Below, one piece after another: positions 5,493 through 60,074 of a stretch of DNA of 64,000 bases. The notes beneath the pieces were generated by a model that was not told where the DNA came from, made no database searches, and saw only the letters and a list, made by a program, of their open reading frames with translations. How positions within the stretch are numbered: the first letter of the stretch is position 1; each line of letters begins with the position of its first letter. The DNA is from Podarcis vaucheri. Taxonomy: Eukaryota. The position numbers were made by a program, and so were the translations under genes. The stretch is taken from NCBI GenBank assembly GCA_965113315.1, contig OZ220366.1; one strand, written 5' to 3'.

Positions 5493-5959
5493 CATTGGTG
5501 TTTTGTGATTTGGTTCACCACATTCCAAAAGAGTATCCTTTGGGGATAAATGCTGTTCATTTTTTGTTGAAATTCATGGGACAACCTTTTGCAATGGTCA
5601 AGATATAATTTCTCCCAAGATATAATAAATTCCAGACAAATGATGACTCAGAAAATACTGAAATGATGATGAAAATTTAAGCGATGACTCAAAATGTCAT
5701 ATTCAAGTTACTGATTTCCCCAAGACCTCCTAGATCATTAACATATAATGTTATACAATATATGCATATATTTGGCAACTTTACTGCTGGAGACTACTGT
5801 TAAGGACATCTCCGCCCATTAACCTTCTCCTTTCCTAATCTTCAGTTTCCTAACCTTTCCTAATCTTCAGTTACAGATAGGTAGCCGTGTTGGTCTGCCA
5901 TAGTCAAAATAAAAAATTCCTTCCAGTAGCACCTTAAAGACCAACTAAGTTAGTTCTTG

Positions 5960-5997
5960 GTATGAGCTTTCGTGTGCATGCACACTTCTTCAGATAC
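5960..5997 (-). ncRNA. Minimal type I hammerhead ribozyme motif (Penelope-associated)
   Basis: Exact reverse complement of 6093-6130. Confidence 0.75.
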
Positions 5998-6092
5998 ACT
6001 GAAACAGAAGTTGCCAGATCCTTCTATATAGTGAGAAGGTAGGGAGGGGTATTACTCAGAAGGGTGGTGGGAATGGGAGATTGAATGGGAGT

Positions 6093-6130
6093 GTATCTGA
6101 AGAAGTGTGCATGCACACGAAAGCTCATAC
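6093..6130 (+). ncRNA. Minimal type I hammerhead ribozyme motif (Penelope-associated)
   Basis: GUAU-CUGAAGA-A-GUGUGCAUGCACAC-GAAA-GC-UC-AUAC. Stem I GUAU/AUAC, CUGANGA and GAAA core boxes, stem II hairpin, palindromic AGCU in place of stem III. Predicted cleavage after C6126. Confidence 0.75.
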
Positions 6131-7208
6131 CAAGAACTAACTTAGTTGGTCTTTAAGGTGCTACTGGAAGGAATTTTTTATTTTTCCTAATCTTATAACA
6201 GAATTTTTTCAAGTTACTGAAAATTGGAAAGGAATGAAATGCTCCAACAACAGAAGTTGGCAGAATAAAGATACCATGTTATCTTAGAAAACCTAATGCT
6301 GGCAGAAGTTGTTGTCAAAGAAATAACCTTTCCCATGTTGTTATCTCTTCGTCCCATAGACCAATGGATGTCTAACGGTACTGGTAGAATTTCATTTCCA
6401 TATATATGTAATGTATTGATCCACAGAAAGAATCTTGTTCCAACCCTCTGAGCAAAATGTTAAGGTCATCTGTTTTCACATGCATAGCAGGAATATTGTA
6501 AACATTTTCCACACTAGTCTGTTGCAGCAACTCATTTGCTACAAAGATCAAGTTTCAAGCACTGCTCACAAAGGTTCAGGAAAGGCATTATATGAATTAT
6601 TAGATTGCTCCCGATGTTGCCCCATATTCCTATATGTACAGGTTTGAGCTGGCAAAATCCAAAGAACATTCATATTCTATTATATAATTTTATTATCCCT
6701 CTTCACATAGATGGGGAGGGGGGCGGGACTCAAGTGTGTAGGTAGGTAAGAGAATTGTGCATGATGGGCCTCATCAACCAGACACTGCTTCTGACCCAAC
6801 TAAAATCAATTCACTTGAATGGGGTGTTCTGCAATTAGAACATGGTGAGTGGAATTTGATATATCCTCCATCATTTCCTTCCCAGCTTCCATATGAAATA
6901 TTTTGACATACTGCAAAGAAGAAGAAAAAAACATGCTATGTAGCAGGTGGAGCCATGGGAAATATTTTATTTTTTTTACTGGATTTTACAGATTCTGGAT
7001 TTGGATTCTCTGATCAATTTCTTTTCCAACTATGTGGCTGCCCTTTGAAGTTAACATCAGAGCTTTGTTCATTGATAGAAAGTCAGGGAACCAAAATGAG
7101 ATGAGGAACTTCCGAAGCTGCTGTTTCGAAAAAGCCACCTGTGGTCCTCTCCTCTATACGTATATCCAAATTAAACAGGGTAAATGGAAAGCTATATGGA
7201 CTGGGTAC

Positions 7209-23066: not shown

Positions 23067-23321
23067 GAGAGCCAGTGTGGTGTAGTGGTTAAGAGCGATA
23101 GACTCGTAATCTGGGGAACCGGGTTCACATCTCTGCTCCTCCCCATGCAGCTGCTGGGTGACCTTGGGCCAGTCAGACTTCTTTGAAATCTCTCAGCCCC
23201 ACTCACCTCACAGAGTGTTTGTTGTGGGGGAGGAAGGGAAAGGAGAATGTTAGCCGCTTTGAGACTCCTTCGGGTAGTGATAAAGCGGGATATCAAATCC
23301 AAACTCTTCTTCTTCTTCTTC
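23067..23321 (+). mobile_element. Squam3-type tRNA/CORE SINE with (CTT)n tail
   Basis: Head gccagtgtggtgtagtggttaagagc, MIR-like core gggtgaccttgggccagtca and CTT tail. ttcttctgttt is repeated on both sides. Confidence 0.85.
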
Positions 23322-24124
23322 TGTTTATGCAGTCCTTCCCCGCGACATAGTCTGAAAATGGCCTGCCGCATCCTGCCATGTGAACCATGGCAGAAAGTTG
23401 AAACCACAAAGGAAAATTGTAGCGCATATAAACATAAGATGGAGAAACAGCCAACATCTTTGCACTGCTGCTGTGCAGGTGGTACTCACTGTGTTGCTGA
23501 GATGGTATAATGCTCAAGTAGACAATACTGAGCTAGGTGAACAAATAAGTTGACCTCATAGAGTAGTTTCTTATGTTCCTAATAGCGCATTGACAAGCTT
23601 GTTTTCTGTGTGCAGGGGATTTTATCTATGGCGGGGTATTTGAATCTGTAGCCTGAAGTGGAACACTCCAGGAAAAGCCTCACTACTTGCTTATGCTTTG
23701 TAAACACTGCATTTAGAAGAGTAATCATAGAAATGTCTGAAAATGTCAAGTCTCATTTGCATGCAGCATTTTTATGACTCTTCATACCCATCAGGCTAAT
23801 GAGTGCACAAATGGCAACTGAGGGAGGGGGGAATTTAGGGGGTGTATTTATTTATTTATGTATTTATTTGCTTCTTGTCAAAGACTACCGATGCATCAGA
23901 TGAAATCTGCCATGTAAAAACCATGTGTGCACAGGGTGTTGAGATTCCAAAGACTGTTATCTATTAAGGAGGTAGAAGACTCATTATTATTAGCTAGAAT
24001 TTGTAACTCACTCTTCTTTTCTAAAGAAAGCTGTAAGCCATTAACAATATATGCCAGTCTGAGTAAACTATAACAACAATACCTCCTAACAAACAGTATA
24101 ACAGTATAAGCAAAAAGCTATTAC

Positions 24125-31727: not shown

Positions 31728-32988
31728 ACATTAACTGAGGTCAGGGGTGGTGCCTCTCTGTTGCTATAACTGCCTCATTGGGTGCACGCCTAGGAGTAGC
31801 TGAGATGTAGGACTGATAGATACACCTTTTCCTAACTTTTGTACCTTTGACAATAGTTATTTCCCCTCTCTTGACATTCCTTGCCTGCAAGGGTCGTGAC
31901 ATTATATTATGGTTTGGATCCCTGTTTTATACACGATACAGAGGAGCAAAAGAACACAATTCAGCATGATTCAATGAACATTAAGATTTAGGCCTTCATT
32001 AATTTTCTACTGAATTATTCTTTAGCAAGTTTCTTTTTCCTTGACAGCCATAATATTGCCACATTTATTTAGTATAATCACCCTCTCTTCATTACTTATT
32101 CCTGTTTCTATAATTTTAAGCATATTCAACACTTCCAAAATTGTGACAAGCTCTGACCTTTAAAATGTGCTCACCTCATATCATTTTCTCATTGTATGGA
32201 AATGAATAGAAAAATTATATTAAAGAATTAGAACAGATTCGTGTTCTTCAAATAAATTTGGAATTATTCTTTCTGTGGCTTGTACACACAGCATATTTTT
32301 TAAATCTATCATTCCACTCTTTTGTCTTGATACCCCAAAATAGCATTTTGTATTATAGTGCTTAAGACATAATACTAAGCCATGGTTTGGAGTCTTGTGG
32401 GCATGAAGTTGATGAGCCTCTCCCCACTCCTACCATGTCAAGAAAATTCCTGACATGTCCTGGTTTTCGGGTGTAAAAATGGCAATGGGGGAATTTTGTC
32501 TAGGAAAACCCAGATGTATGGCAACACAATGGAAAAAGCAGTTGAAACAGCTCAAAAAGGTTAATATCACTATTTTCATGGTAGCTGAACAATTTGGATT
32601 TGTTCCCAATTTTGGTGGGTTTTTATAAAAAACTTAACAATTTATGGATCTTCTGAGAAAAGGTCAGCAACTTTGTGGGTGAAATATGGCACCCCTCCTA
32701 CCATGTGTGGTGATTTCCTAACCTTCTAGTCTTGTTTGAGGCCAACTATAGTTCTGTGTTTCTCTTGAACTGGCAAATAATGATTTTCAGTTTCTCTGCA
32801 AATCAGGATCAGAAGGTGTGCTAAAAGTGTTTTCCTGCCTTTGCATCGTTATGTGGATTATTAGCAGAACTGCAGCAGAAATAAGGCATCACATATGTTC
32901 TTTTTAAAAGTTGCCCTTTTGCAGCCGTTTATGCAAAAATTAAGTATTGTAACGTAACTAATATAGTAAGGATGACACCAATGGGATA

Positions 32989-33085
32989 TCTGAAGAAGTG
33001 TGCATGCACACGAAAGCTCATACCAAGAACTAACTTACCGTAGTTGGTCTTTAAGTTGCTACTGAAAGCAATTTTTTTTATTTTG
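32989..33085 (+). mobile_element. Short Penelope-like pseudo-LTR fragment with hammerhead motif
   Basis: Near-identical to 6096-6184. Exact 12-bp flanking duplication accaatgggata (32977-32988, 33086-33097). Confidence 0.8.
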
Positions 33086-49679: not shown

Positions 49680-50348
49680 TTATACGATATGATATCTTTA
49701 TTGTTATTGTCCCTTGCGGAACAATGAAAATGAAAAACTACATAAAACTACCACAAAACTACATAAAACTGCATAAAACTACTATAAAACTACAGAAAAC
49801 ATTCAAAAACCCCTAAAAACTCTAAAACCCCATTTTAAAATACACTATACTACAGAGACCCCTTATGCTGTGTTTAGAGCCAGAATTGCATTAGCGTAGA
49901 AACTGTTTCTCAGGCGGCTAGTCCTGGCCTTTATAACCCTATACCTTCTTCCAGAAGGCAGAAGCTGAAAGAGATCATTTCCGGGGTGCGTACTATCCTG
50001 CGCTATCTCTGCTGCTTTCTTATGGTACCTGGCAGCATAGATTTGATCTAAGGTGGGAAGAGTGCACCCAATTATTCTCTCTGCAGTCTTTACAACCCTG
50101 GATAGCATTGTTTTTTCCCTGGCTGTGCAGCTCCCAAACCACACACACAGACCATAAGTTAGTACGCTCTCCACAGTGCAATGGTAAAATGCCATCAACA
50201 GGTCCTTTGAGAGATTGTTTTTCTGGAGGATTCTCAGAAAATATAACCTCTGCTGTGCTCTCTTCACCAGGTCTTTGCTGTTCTCTCCCCAGGTTAGGTC
50301 GTCTCTCAACTCCATTCCCAGAAATCAAAACACCGAGACCTGTTCCAT
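49680..50348 (-). mobile_element. Rex1/Babar-clade LINE 3' fragment nested in a small palindromic MITE
   Basis: Peptide EQVSVF*FLGMELRDDLTW...VKRAQQRLYFLRIL...FYHCTVESVLTYGLCVWFGSC...HPGNDLFQLLPSGRRYR...TSRLRNSFY. Natural stop, tandem-repeat 3' UTR and AATAAA. Confidence 0.9.
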
Positions 50349-55914: not shown

Positions 55915-56431
55915 CGAAGAATAAGAGTTTTTTCACTGGCTCCAAATTACACTTGGCTTGGGGACTGCATTTATATACATTCTTTGAGATGGTAAAATGT
56001 GTTGTACTGAATTGTCTCAGAAAATGCTTCGATTTTCATACAGATCAGCAACATCAATTGCAGGTGTTTTGATCAATGTTCATGCTGTATTTTTAACAGT
56101 GAGGAATTAGGGAAATGGGAACATAATTCAGCCCCCCTCGCCCCCGCCTCCCTTCCTTAGCTATGTGATCTATTGACCTGGTCGTTTTTTAATACAACAG
56201 ATCCAGGTGGTATAGGGATGGCTAAATCCATCATTTTCAGTTTTTCTCTGTTGCTCACCCCCCCCCCAATCTGAAATTCAGTTCGCCACATTTTCATATG
56301 AGTTTGTTATTTATTTTAACTTCAGGGTAGGTGGGATAGGAATCAGCAACAGTTTAGTGGGCATTTATCTGACTATACATGTTTCTGTATGCAATTTCCC
56401 CTAATAGACACATTTCCCCACATTCCCCCCT

Positions 56432-57455
56432 AAAGACTCTCCTCCCTGGAAGAGAGGGGAGTGGTTGTGGACGGGAGCCCGAGCTCCGCCCATAGCAGGG
56501 GGCGTTAGCCCCCTGCCTTCTCCTCTTACCTGGCTGGCGCCCACGCCCCTCGGCAGGCACCCAACCAGGTGCCTCCGAGGGGGCGTGTACAGCAGGCTTT
56601 TGCTGCGGCGCCAGCCTCTCCTCGGCCTCATTCTTCGCCATCGTCTCGTCGCGAGTCACCCACCCTCCACTCCCTTTGAGCTCAGGGTCTTAGTTCATTG
56701 GCCTTGCTGTGGACCTTAGGTTGGTCGCCCTGGTTGTCTAGGGGGCCTGGTAGGAATTTTTCCGTTTGGCATTAGGCTTTTTGGTTTTTCCGCCTACCTC
56801 GTAGCAATCGTCACAACTTTTGTGGTATTGGTGAGTAGGTTAGGCATTGGAATAATGTGTTGTGGTGCGTCGAAGGGCTAGGCGTGGCCATCGCCTATGC
56901 CTTCAATTTTTGGGTATTCCGTTAAAGGGATCTGGCGGTCGTGTGTTCTGTCTGATGCCTGCTTGGCGGGAGGCCATGGCACGACCCTCGGTGACATCAG
57001 GAGAGAGCCTATAGTTGGATTAGCATCAACAGGCTCCACCTACTGGTGAATAAACCCCCTTGTTTTAGATATCCAATGCCAGTGTGGTGTAGTGGTTAAG
57101 AGCGGTGGACTCGTAATCTGGGGAACCGGGTTCGCGTCTCCGCTCCTCCACATGCAGCTGCTGGGTGACCTTGGGTCAGTCACACTTCTTTGAAGTCTCT
57201 CAGCCCCACTCACCTCACAGAGTGTTTGTTGTGGGGGAGGAAGGGAAAGGAGAATGTGAGCCGCTTTGAGACTCCTGAAGGGGAGTGAAAGGCGGGATAT
57301 CAAATCCAAACTCTTCTTCTTCTTCTTCTAAGCCAATACCTTTTCACTGCTGTAATCAATAAAGTTGTGGCCTTTTCTTGCCCATTAGCCTTATATCACG
57401 TGTCCTTGCGTATTCATTTCACACTGCGGGGGGAGGGCGGGTCCTCGAACCACAA
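56432..57455 (+). mobile_element. ~800-bp non-coding retroelement terminal unit, probably DIRS/Ngaro-like (copy 1, interrupted by a SINE)
   Basis: Homologous end to end with 58987-59788. Ends aaagactct...cgaaccacaa, CpG-rich 5' part, aataaagttgtggcc near the 3' end. No TSD; the empty site ccctaatataatg restores the host hAT-like repeat. Confidence 0.65.
57078..57329 (+). mobile_element. Squam3-type SINE nested in copy 1
   Basis: Close match to 23071-23321. Absent from copy 2, which reads atccaatgcc|taagccaatacc. Confidence 0.9.
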
Positions 57456-58986
57456 TATAATGCCTTTTTACTAATAGATATGCTTTTTTATGTGCACATT
57501 CTCCTAATATATGCAATTTTGCCCATATTTTTGGGTCAGAGACCTGTACCACACAATGCAGAGAAGTGTGAATTTCAAAGGTTAGCAGTGTTTCAGTTCC
57601 ATGCATTGCTTCAGGAAGTGTGAACTGTGTAGGTCTGCATTAAATTGGGAACCGAAGTGAATTTCTTCTGCTTATCCAAGTTTCACTGGGCTGGGGGTGG
57701 AGCTGTCCAGATGACAAGTCTGTGTTGAGGAAAGGTAAGGGAGGAGAAAGGTTCAGCTCCCCTTATTGGATTGCAGCCACATGCACATGAAGAGCAAGCA
57801 TCCTATGCCATTTATCTTGGTCCTCTGGGTGGCTGCTGCATTTGGTGGCAGTAGAATCTGTCCAGAATAAAGTTCTCCATCAGCTTGGGATGCCAGCAGA
57901 CATCCACATGTGGTGATGTTGTGGCAGTCCAACAGTCCTTGCAGTGGCTCACACAACTGAGATATAAAAGATTCAATGCCAGGAGCCAGTTGAGACTGTC
58001 ATGTTGACAAATTAAGCTGCATGCCTTCTGAATGTGATTTATGAATAAAGTAATCCGCTTAATGCCGTATTCCTTATTTGTGATATGGTTTTATTGGTAA
58101 TGAAGAGTGGCATGCATATCTGAGTATTATGCAAATAAGCTTATTCATCTGATGCAATTGCAGCCAGAAAGTTAGCACAAGTCACAGTAAAGCATAGAGC
58201 ATGACAGCCTTTTACCAGTCTGGCTACTAATGAATATTTCTTCCCATGATTTTGTTTGTTCTCTGCATATAATACAAAAACATAGTAGGGGAAAGGAATA
58301 GGATATGGAGAAACTGCCTACTAATTTAATGTAACTTTTGTTGACCTTGCTTAACATAAGCTTAACACAGTTTGAAATTTGGCCATCATGAATTAATTGA
58401 TATTTTCAGCATTTTTATTTACTATTTTTGATAGCCGGCTTTTATCTTTCTTACTTAAAAACAAACTTAACTGATCTTTTCAATGATAGAGTTATCTTTT
58501 CTTTAATACTGAACACAGAAGTGATCTGCATGATTGTTATCATTTGCTAATTATAGTTTATGAACACAGAGGATTGGTTTCTTTCATAAAAAGAGGGGGA
58601 TATAAAGAACAACAATAAAAAACATGAAACTCCTTATGATCTGTCCCAACAGTTGTTTGAGATGTGACAAATATTTTTATAGCATCTAATTTTCATATAT
58701 ACTCAGAAACACTAGCACTGTGCAATATAGAGAAATTATGCTGATAGTACAAAGAGTCCCACTGAAATTAATGAGCTCTTTATTACTGTGATTGTAATGA
58801 CTCCCCAATGGGCAATACATGCTGGAACAATACTCAGATAGCTTTGCTGTGTAGCAGTCCTTCTCCCTCTCTTTCTTGATATCTGTGTACACGTACACAC
58901 ACAGAGAGAACGTTTTGCTAATCTGGACCTTGGTGAGCTGGAGAATCAGCAACTACAGCAAATTTAAAATACACAGAATGTTGACA

Positions 58987-59788
58987 TTGTGGTTCGAGGA
59001 CCCGATCCCCGCGTAGTGGAATGAAAACACGAGGACAAGTGATATAAGGTTAATGGGCAAGAAAAGGCCACAACTTTATTGATTACAGCAAGTGAAAAGG
59101 TATTGGCTTAGGCATTGGATTACGTCAGCTGACTCCACCCCCTCAGAGAGGGGTGAGTCTAAAACAGGGGGGTTTATTCACCAGTAGGTGGAGCCTGTTG
59201 ATGCTAATCCAACTATAAGCTCTCTCCTGATGTCACCGAGGGTCGTGCCATGGCCTCCCGCCAAGCAGGCATCGGACAGAATACACGACCGCCAGATCCC
59301 TTTAACGGAATACCCAAAAATTGAAGGCATAGGCGATGGCCACACCTAGCCCTTCGACACACCACAACACATTATTCCAATGCCTAACCTACCCACCAAT
59401 ACCACGAAAGTTGTGACGATTGCTACGAGGTAGGCGAAAAAACCAAAAAGCCTAATGCCAAATAGAAAAATTCCTACCAGGCCCCCCGGACAACCAGGGC
59501 GACCAACCTAAGGTCCATAGCAAGGCCAAAAGAAAACTGAGACCCTGAGCTCTAAGGGAGTGGAGGGTGGGTGACTCGCGATGAGACGACGAAAAGTGAG
59601 GCCGGAAGGCTGGTGCCGCAGCATTTTGGGCTGCTAAACACGCCCCCTCGCAGGCACCTGGTTGGGTGCCTGCCCGTGGGCGTAGGCCAGCCAGGTGAGT
59701 GGGAGGCAGGAGGCTAACGCCCCCTGCTTGAGGCGGAGTCCGGCTCCCGACCACAACCACTCCCCTCTCTTGCAGGAGGAGAGTCTTT
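58987..59788 (-). mobile_element. ~800-bp non-coding retroelement terminal unit, probably DIRS/Ngaro-like (copy 2)
   Basis: Inverted homolog of 56432-57455 with the same termini. No TSD; the empty site reads gacattcacacaatacattt, the start of a common palindromic repeat. Confidence 0.65.
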
Positions 59789-60074
59789 CACACAATACAT
59801 TTAGACCACTATGATACCACTTTAAACAGACTTCACCCAGAGAATTCTAGGTACTGTAAAGCTGAGAGTTGTTAGGAGACCATTATTCCCCAGAGCTACA
59901 GTTGCCAGATTTCTTTGTCATGATGGATTAATTGTTAACCCACTCTGAGAACTAAAGCTCTAGGGGGGGGGGTATAGGGGTATCGTAACAATGCCCAGCA
60001 GCTTTAACTAATTATATCTCTCAGAATTATTTGGGGGATGCCCTGACCATTTAAAGTACAGTATCACAGTTCCT

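Follow-up and report, generated by a model that had tools for sequence, protein, structure and literature searches.

The question raised by this locus is how a repeat of about 800 bp came to be inserted twice without duplicating its target, and which class of mobile element moved it. The window, meaning here the whole stretch of 64,000 nt from contig OZ220366.1 of Podarcis vaucheri (assembly GCA_965113315.1; approximately 40% GC, with many repeats, whose LINE and SINE tails are of a squamate, probably lacertid, kind), contained two copies of the unit, copy 1 and copy 2 (Table 1), and no third copy was found in its 64 kb. Both 800-bp units are genuine insertions, placed at AA without target duplication. 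They were read, with about an even chance of being right, as solo A+B terminal repeats of a split-direct-repeat (Ngaro/PAT-type) tyrosine-recombinase (YR) retrotransposon, the B/A junction of which, predicted to fold, would be the recombination site. The unit was treated as a Ngaro/PAT-type candidate with no formal Ngaro membership assigned, the family assignment being made against published layout descriptions.

The alignment of the two copies ran from the first AA to the last AA (AA being counted at both ends of each unit) and stopped outside these points. Both copies started with AAAGACTC (at 56432, and at 59788 on the minus strand, respectively) and ended with CCACAA (at 57455, and at 58987 on the minus strand, respectively), and their identity fell from 88% in the initial 66 nt to 82% in the 200 nt that follow, with 96% for the middle part and 90% for the 3' end. 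For copy 2, the empty site was recovered under another species label (run X5, organism D), in which contig 9 joined 59787-59906 (record positions 1-120) to 58700-58986 (record positions 121-407), with exactly 800 bp absent, AA present once and 7 differences across 407 flank bases. In a contig of run X1 (organism A), element bases adjoined the right flank of copy 2; since the site was filled in X1 and empty in X5, its occupancy differs between close species labels. At least four further family copies stopped at 59788 or 59789 and then ran into other DNA (X1 records 5, 6 and 7; X5 record 14), and no target duplication of more than 2 bp was found at the three boundaries tested, TGTGG..CCACA included. 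The fixed termini and the sharing of AA alone, both proposed in an earlier sequence-only reading of this DNA, were thus borne out by the alignment and the further copies, and by the boundary test and the X5 empty site, respectively. Its proposal that both targets contain AAT held for 2 of the 2 window copies, and the T was lacking from an RNA loose end of 7 reads (agreement 0.6) at that terminus. The empty site of copy 1 was only deduced and resembles two flank units at 56400 and 57503; the surroundings of copy 1 (56390-56431 and 57456-57520) consist of degenerate short repeat units like it. A folded or palindromic target was rejected, with a weak 5-bp stem at the copy 2 site (58970-58986 with 59787-59800) and none at the copy 1 site.

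These boundaries bear directly on the solo long terminal repeat (LTR) of an endogenous retrovirus or Gypsy element (TG...CA ends, DDE integrase) with a leftover purine tract upstream, by which the TGTGG...CCACA ends, the purine-rich tract just upstream and the AATAAA about 90 nt from the end would be explained. The empty site, however, places the start of the insertion 33 nt upstream of TGTGG, with AA alone in common, at least four more copies end at 59788/59789, and a 4-6-bp duplication was found at no tested boundary, so that this explanation was considered extremely improbable; for copy 2, the empty site excludes a standard LTR that duplicates 4-6 bp. The pattern that the sequence-only reading had set against itself (starts at TGTGG with 4-6-bp duplications) was accordingly seen neither in the two window copies nor in the at least four others.

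For the family as a whole, 4 of 24 listed runs were analysed; at least half of the words searched for were present in 14 of the 24, under several species labels, and none of these holders was an RNA run, a result uninformative on expression. The further copies were taken from 16 of 7851 contig rows, the joints from 15 of 31 and the DNA loose ends from 24 of 583, and the variants from 40 of 216 substitutions and 12 of 51 indels. The depth across the unit in X1 was 57,000-1,120,000, as compared with 85 in the flank (hundreds to more than 10,000 times), which, as a sum across family reads and not a copy number, skewed close to repeat ends, points to a very large family. The depth peaked at 1.12 M over the AATAAA segment and was lower at the termini, the all-depth near them being 86 k at 59006 and 239 k at 59750. 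The AATAAA and the GT/T-rich stretch downstream of it were retained in diverged relatives, about 60 contigs per DNA run diverged at 59440 toward a different 5' part, many distinct short sequences took the place of 59120-59180 among family copies, and the 5' 260 nt were less alike between copies (82-88%) than the middle (96%). From the depth peak over the poly(A) segment, the kept AATAAA with its GT/T stretch and the variable 5' part, we infer an LTR-like pattern, in which the 5' part would be U3-like and the spacer a candidate A/B boundary. The AATAAA strand of the unit also carries GC boxes and CCAAT motifs, with AATAAA about 90 nt before the end. In the RNA run X23, first mates lay mainly on the plus strand over 59160-59527 (11-35 vs 0-5); for a library of the usual stranded type, this would indicate transcription in the orientation of AATAAA, with 392 of 531 reads less than 90% alike and the strandedness not on record. 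As a separate observation, about 280 X23 reads matched only the 54-nt segment 59065-59118, were flanked on either side by other, uniform sequence and had their mates on the opposite strand; they seem to derive from a single, highly expressed locus that carries a diverged relative of the unit.

The solo A+B reading was adopted because of the conserved poly(A) region, the variable 5' part, the short shared motif and the spacer between conserved blocks. YR retroelements are described as inserting at a short junction motif, mostly NTT/AAT, without target duplication (PMC3266345, PMC7192593; here and below, cited papers are represented by excerpts). A short shared motif with no further duplication was found here by the empty site and the boundary test, and on the opposite strand both copies with their flank begin with ATT and end with TTT. 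Solo AB repeats are known for Ngaro in Cafeteria burkhardae (PMC8547959), and SIRE is the A2+B2 of VIPER with an internal piece of about 30 bp (PMC6681497). The first step of the proposed route is what was observed, namely fixed termini, a shared 2-bp AA, an empty site under another species label and a very high depth-based abundance. A parent of the form A1-[gag, reverse transcriptase (RT)/RNase H, YR]-B1A2B2 would have been transcribed from A1 to the poly(A) signal of B2, its internal B1/A2 junction holding the joined end and start. On the published model, reverse transcription would give a circle with this junction, and the YR would cross over within AA at a host AA; later recombination of A1 with A2 would remove the interior and leave the solo unit. 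The junction hairpin is predicted to serve as a cis signal on the AATAAA strand, as complementary DNA (cDNA) or as RNA. If the family is of the Ngaro/PAT type, the hairpin would be present at B1/A2 of every full-length parent, in DNA, RNA and cDNA.

The hairpin had been described in the sequence-only reading as a 9-bp inner stem, a 2x2 internal loop and a 6-7-bp outer stem, existing only in the circular or tandem form. With DNA parameters, the 64-nt junction fold gave z values of -2.55 (copy 1) and -3.32 (copy 2), and 6 of 500 and 3 of 500 shuffles, respectively, were equally stable, the 64-nt window having been picked after the fact; 25 and 22 cross-junction pairs, respectively, were predicted in 104-nt windows. 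The gain on joining the ends of the AATAAA strand was -13.6 (copy 1) and -10.2 kcal/mol (copy 2), a gain reached by 2 of 300 and 0 of 300 control joins, respectively, of the end arm with other pieces and by 0 of 300 and 0 of 300 joins of other pieces with the start; that of the opposite strand was -7.1/-6.9 kcal/mol. The hairpin was therefore reproduced beyond chance and stronger on the claimed strand, but the predicted outer stem is about 26-28 nt and bulged, not 6-7 bp, and the joined hairpin is predicted to span 80-95 nt with single-base bulges. Its restriction to the circular or tandem form was too strong, because the inner 9-bp stem lies within the first 31 nt, needs no junction and forms in the linear copy, and the outer stem could pair long-range in a linear single strand. 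A 64-nt window more stable than the junction (-20.0 vs -16.7 kcal/mol) was predicted at the internal bulged hairpin near unit position 100.

Four of the listed frequent family variants fell within the hairpin, of which the one at 59006 is unpaired, those at 59772 and 59774 (the latter an insertion) lie in or next to the loop, and the fourth is at 59750. None of the variants listed, which cover 40 of the 216 substitutions and 12 of the 51 indels, fell in the CCACAA/TTGTGG helix or the 9-bp stem, and the two Gs facing the junction were the same in both copies, with no variant among the 40 substitutions. This placement fits a kept structure and is not a covariation test. Masking of the upstream AATAAA by the junction was considered and found unsupported, as the two copies disagree. 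Given a Ngaro/PAT-type family, use of the hairpin as a folded att site, the boldest version of this proposal, is put forward tentatively, with clearly less than even confidence.

No sign of coding was seen in the unit, the stop-free frames of which have at most 111 codons. None of 6 unit frames was matched in Pfam; of the relatives sought for the frames, none was confirmed for one frame among 5 candidates in longer proteins, and for another no match was found in 1.84 billion representatives. Neither an Rfam match nor a hit of the tRNA scan was obtained for the unit, and searching viral and metagenome contigs for the pattern turned up 4 and 10 loci, respectively, all of them chance matches of 19-22 nt. 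RT/RNase H or YR open reading frames (ORFs) would not be expected in solo units.

Several results weigh against the solo A+B reading. RT or YR Pfam families were matched in 0 of 18 window ORFs of at least 120 aa and in 0 of the 6 unit frames, and no parent was found in the window. No end-to-start joint was seen in 4 runs in a listing of 15 of 31 joints, whose weakest entry had a depth of 67; this list is incomplete, because the empty-site joint was also absent from it, and weak joints are hidden. No pair of DNA loose ends marking the passages from A1 to the interior and from the interior to B1 was present among the 24 of 583 listed, and no report placing Ngaro in lacertids was found in the literature searched. 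The strand preference of copy 2 was abolished by RNA parameters (-16.6 vs -17.1), one predicted pair is broken by the allele in the majority (71-78%) at 59750, and the depth sums, which are no copy numbers, are biased near repeat ends. The end layout, moreover, also fits Helitron2/HINE well. The retroelement derivation proposed in the sequence-only reading thus keeps the fit of the LTR-like poly(A) region and the high-copy family, with no parent, recombinase or head-to-tail junction found in this material.

The match of the opposite strand to most of the published Helitron2/HINE end layout was overlooked in the sequence-only reading. Read backwards, the unit would be a non-autonomous Helitron2/Helentron (HLE2, HINE) in which T and an inverted repeat form the start, and the partner repeat with a stem-loop and a T-run the end, T^T being its insertion site; it would be moved by RepHel (HUH) by way of a single-stranded circle, and its asymmetric terminal inverted repeats would pair to give the junction hairpin. 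In HINEs the 5' repeat lies 0-2 bp and the 3' repeat about 20-30 bp from the ends, the latter upstream of the hairpin, and their pairing was proposed (PMC3627910); here the distances are 0-1 nt and 32-33 nt (slightly beyond the published range), respectively, with the 3' repeat 2 nt upstream of the hairpin. A T^T target without duplication was observed, as for Helitron2, which uses a TT target and leaves it unchanged (PMC4067079, PMC11417382); many non-coding copies are typical of HINEs, and joined ends of FoHeli1 were amplified (PMC5148889). A HINE needs no internal copy of the junction and therefore fits the unseen end-to-start joint, and, as reverse-oriented HLE2 exist (PMC11417382, PMC3627910), a poly(A) signal may lie on the other strand. 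In copy 2, however, the longest perfect repeat has 7 bp, and in copy 1 it has 6 bp, as compared with the published 8-15, 12-15 or 12-16 bp, the actual pairing being a bulged stretch of 26-28 nt (in copy 2, 15 of 18 when two gaps are allowed). The 5'-terminal hairpin is marginal (4-bp stem, -1.0 kcal/mol), some HLE2 being without such a hairpin (PMC5148889), and the stem-loop ends 3-4 nt from the terminus, a very short tail next to the 8-35 bp of mite HINEs (PMC4067079). The hairpin side is the more variable one here, whereas the left ends of HLE are said to vary more (PMC11417382), and the best-covered segment is the poly(A) signal and not a terminus. In the HELIANO Table S10, as excerpted, HLE1 is the only type entered for Lacerta agilis (438) and for Vipera ursinii (3), and HLE2 is absent in 4 reptiles; that scan requires an intact transposase, and the clade label is ours. 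A Helitron family has been placed in Lacertidae (PMC12001565). On balance the solo A+B reading is favoured, and the HINE, though a serious candidate, is held to be less likely. If it is right, the unit would be a newly recognised reptile representative of a known class, its end pairing being unusually long and bulged.

Two further proposals concern how the junction might act. In the first, a vertebrate YR retrotransposon would integrate via a folded single-stranded attC-like junction, the predicted 80-95-nt bulged hairpin being the att site with exchange at the AA beside the 2x2 loop, and a two-base homology with G-T wobble would explain the AA(T) target; this joint claim was judged improbable. 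An imperfect, bulged hairpin favouring one strand, as in attC, was indeed found by prediction with DNA parameters only. The 800-bp units might, moreover, be remobilised as cassettes. The DIRS/Ngaro integration route is unproven, the specificity of the YR being untested, and DIRS-1 cDNA is single-stranded according to the excerpt of PMC7192593; a folded site, if true, would make the double-stranded circle of the DIRS/Ngaro model unneeded and would fit such a cDNA. No proposal of a folded att site for YR retrotransposons was found in the literature searched, outside which most subscription papers lie. In the second, the unit would itself be mobile as DNA, in the manner of an integron cassette or a non-autonomous Crypton, a YR acting in trans excising a circle, re-forming the folded junction and re-inserting it at AA, with the internal arm as a mini DIRS-type splint. 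Complementarity to the start and to the end, arranged as in the DIRS internal complementary region (ICR), is present at unit positions 24-60, all units seen were short, the empty site is exact, and the shared junction-facing Gs described above would also agree with it; it leaves the poly(A) signal without a role, no enzyme was found for it, the DIRS sizes (inverted terminal repeats (ITRs) of 66-316 bp and near-perfect ICRs of 85-130 bp; PMC3266345) are absent, and Cryptons have 4-6-bp direct repeats (PMC3212892) instead of the 2 bp here. This cassette-like mobility is a quite improbable explanation.

The very abundant family, the exact empty sites between close species and the strand-biased junction hairpin together would give a defined substrate and a target rule. 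The positions of the parts of the units are collected in Table 1.

Table 1. Positions of the two units and of their parts in the window.
Feature	Position	Strand	Remark
Copy 1 of the unit	56432..57455	+	Short interspersed element (SINE) inside; about 35 nt of the variable spacer lacking
Copy 1 inner stem-loop	56436..56462	+	9 bp with one G-T pair; in the linear copy too
Copy 1 start-side arm, TTGTGG onward	56465..56491	+	Predicted partner is the element end
SINE inserted in copy 1	57078..57329	+	Taken by us to be a SINE; second copy at 23071-23322, 95-98% alike
Copy 1 AATAAA	57358..57363	+	Followed by a GT/T-rich stretch
Copy 1 end-side arm	57428..57455	+	Terminates in CCACAA
Copy 2 of the unit	58987..59788	-	800 bp missing at the empty site in organism D
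Copy 2 end-side arm	58987..59012	-	Terminates in CCACAA; the 5' inverted repeat in the Helitron2 reading
Best-covered family segment	59065..59118	-	AATAAA at 59080-59075; common to diverged relatives
Hypervariable spacer	59120..59180	-	Replaced by varied short sequences in family copies; candidate A/B boundary
Conserved middle	59158..59529	-	96% between copies; longest stop-free frame wholly inside of at most 55 codons
GC-rich 5' part	59530..59732	-	82% between copies; low family depth; subfamily-variable; putatively U3-like
Copy 2 start-side arm	59733..59756	-	The 3' subterminal inverted repeat in the Helitron2 reading
Copy 2 inner stem-loop	59759..59784	-	9 bp; G-T on the minus strand, C-A mismatch on the plus strand
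Internal bulged hairpin	59640-59683 (copy 2); 56539-56582 (copy 1)		
Edge of another high-copy repeat	59787..59829	+	Insertion target of copy 2; loose ends in 84-106 contigs at both edges

The repeat edge into which copy 2 was inserted looks like what we take to be a Harbinger-type terminus of a MITE (a miniature transposable element with inverted repeats). Beside the presumed SINE of copy 1 (57069-57329), a deletion of about 35 nt has removed a small hairpin that is kept in copy 2 (about 59125-59160). Elsewhere in the window, a 100-bp inverted repeat (98%, with an 89-nt spacer) was seen at 5901-6189 and 32987-33083, together with a partial third copy, as a young MITE-like element, and a 153-codon frame at 49863-50324 on the minus strand matched Pfam ALKBH8_N (PF09004) and is presumably the C-terminal part of the ORF of a long interspersed element.

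Folded recombination sites of bacterial systems offer one comparison. Phage CTX attP, with its rule of short homology plus wobble, is one such site. The integron attC is like the predicted junction in being an imperfect hairpin (80-95 nt here) completed on joining, with bulges, strand-favouring G-T pairs and an AA crossover by an unpaired centre (PMC5027507). The unit differs from it in having no AAC triplet in a 7-bp R box (AA at the junction is followed by AG), an internal loop of 2x2 only, and bulges on the AA-bearing arm distal to AA, whereas in attC the extrahelical bases of the bottom strand lie opposite the triplet near the L box (PMC5027507); its host, moreover, is eukaryotic, with no integrase known.

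Like Helitron2/HINE and DINE-1, the unit has a T^T site without duplication, an asymmetric inverted repeat directly upstream of an end hairpin and a proposed pairing of the ends, joined ends also being known there; it is unlike them in its 6-7-bp perfect repeat within a long bulged pairing, its weak 5' hairpin, its short tail and its coverage peak at the poly(A) signal. With DIRS1-like elements it shares the NTT/AAT-type motif, the lack of duplication and an internal stretch with complementarity to the two ends, arranged as for a splint (PMC3266345, PMC7192593). The longest perfect end repeat of 7 bp, the lack of long ITRs and the lack of RT, methyltransferase and YR set it apart from DIRS1, as does its complementary stretch of about 40 nt, bulged and mismatched at the junction, against the 85-130-bp ICR.

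Among the YR retrotransposons with split direct repeats, the Ngaro solo AB repeats and SIRE are alike to the unit in being short, non-coding and high-copy, with a variable piece between conserved parts, which fits a collapsed A1-B1A2B2. A junction hairpin is not mentioned for Ngaro solo AB, SIRE or DIRS-53_XT in the excerpts of PMC8547959, PMC6681497 and PMC9210276, respectively, nor is any junction structure in those of PMC3783388 and PMC4157794. The unit is about 800 bp, as compared with the 388-bp A+B of Xenopus DIRS-53_XT (PMC9210276), and the variable spacer at 59120-59180 resembles the inner piece of about 30 bp in SIRE.

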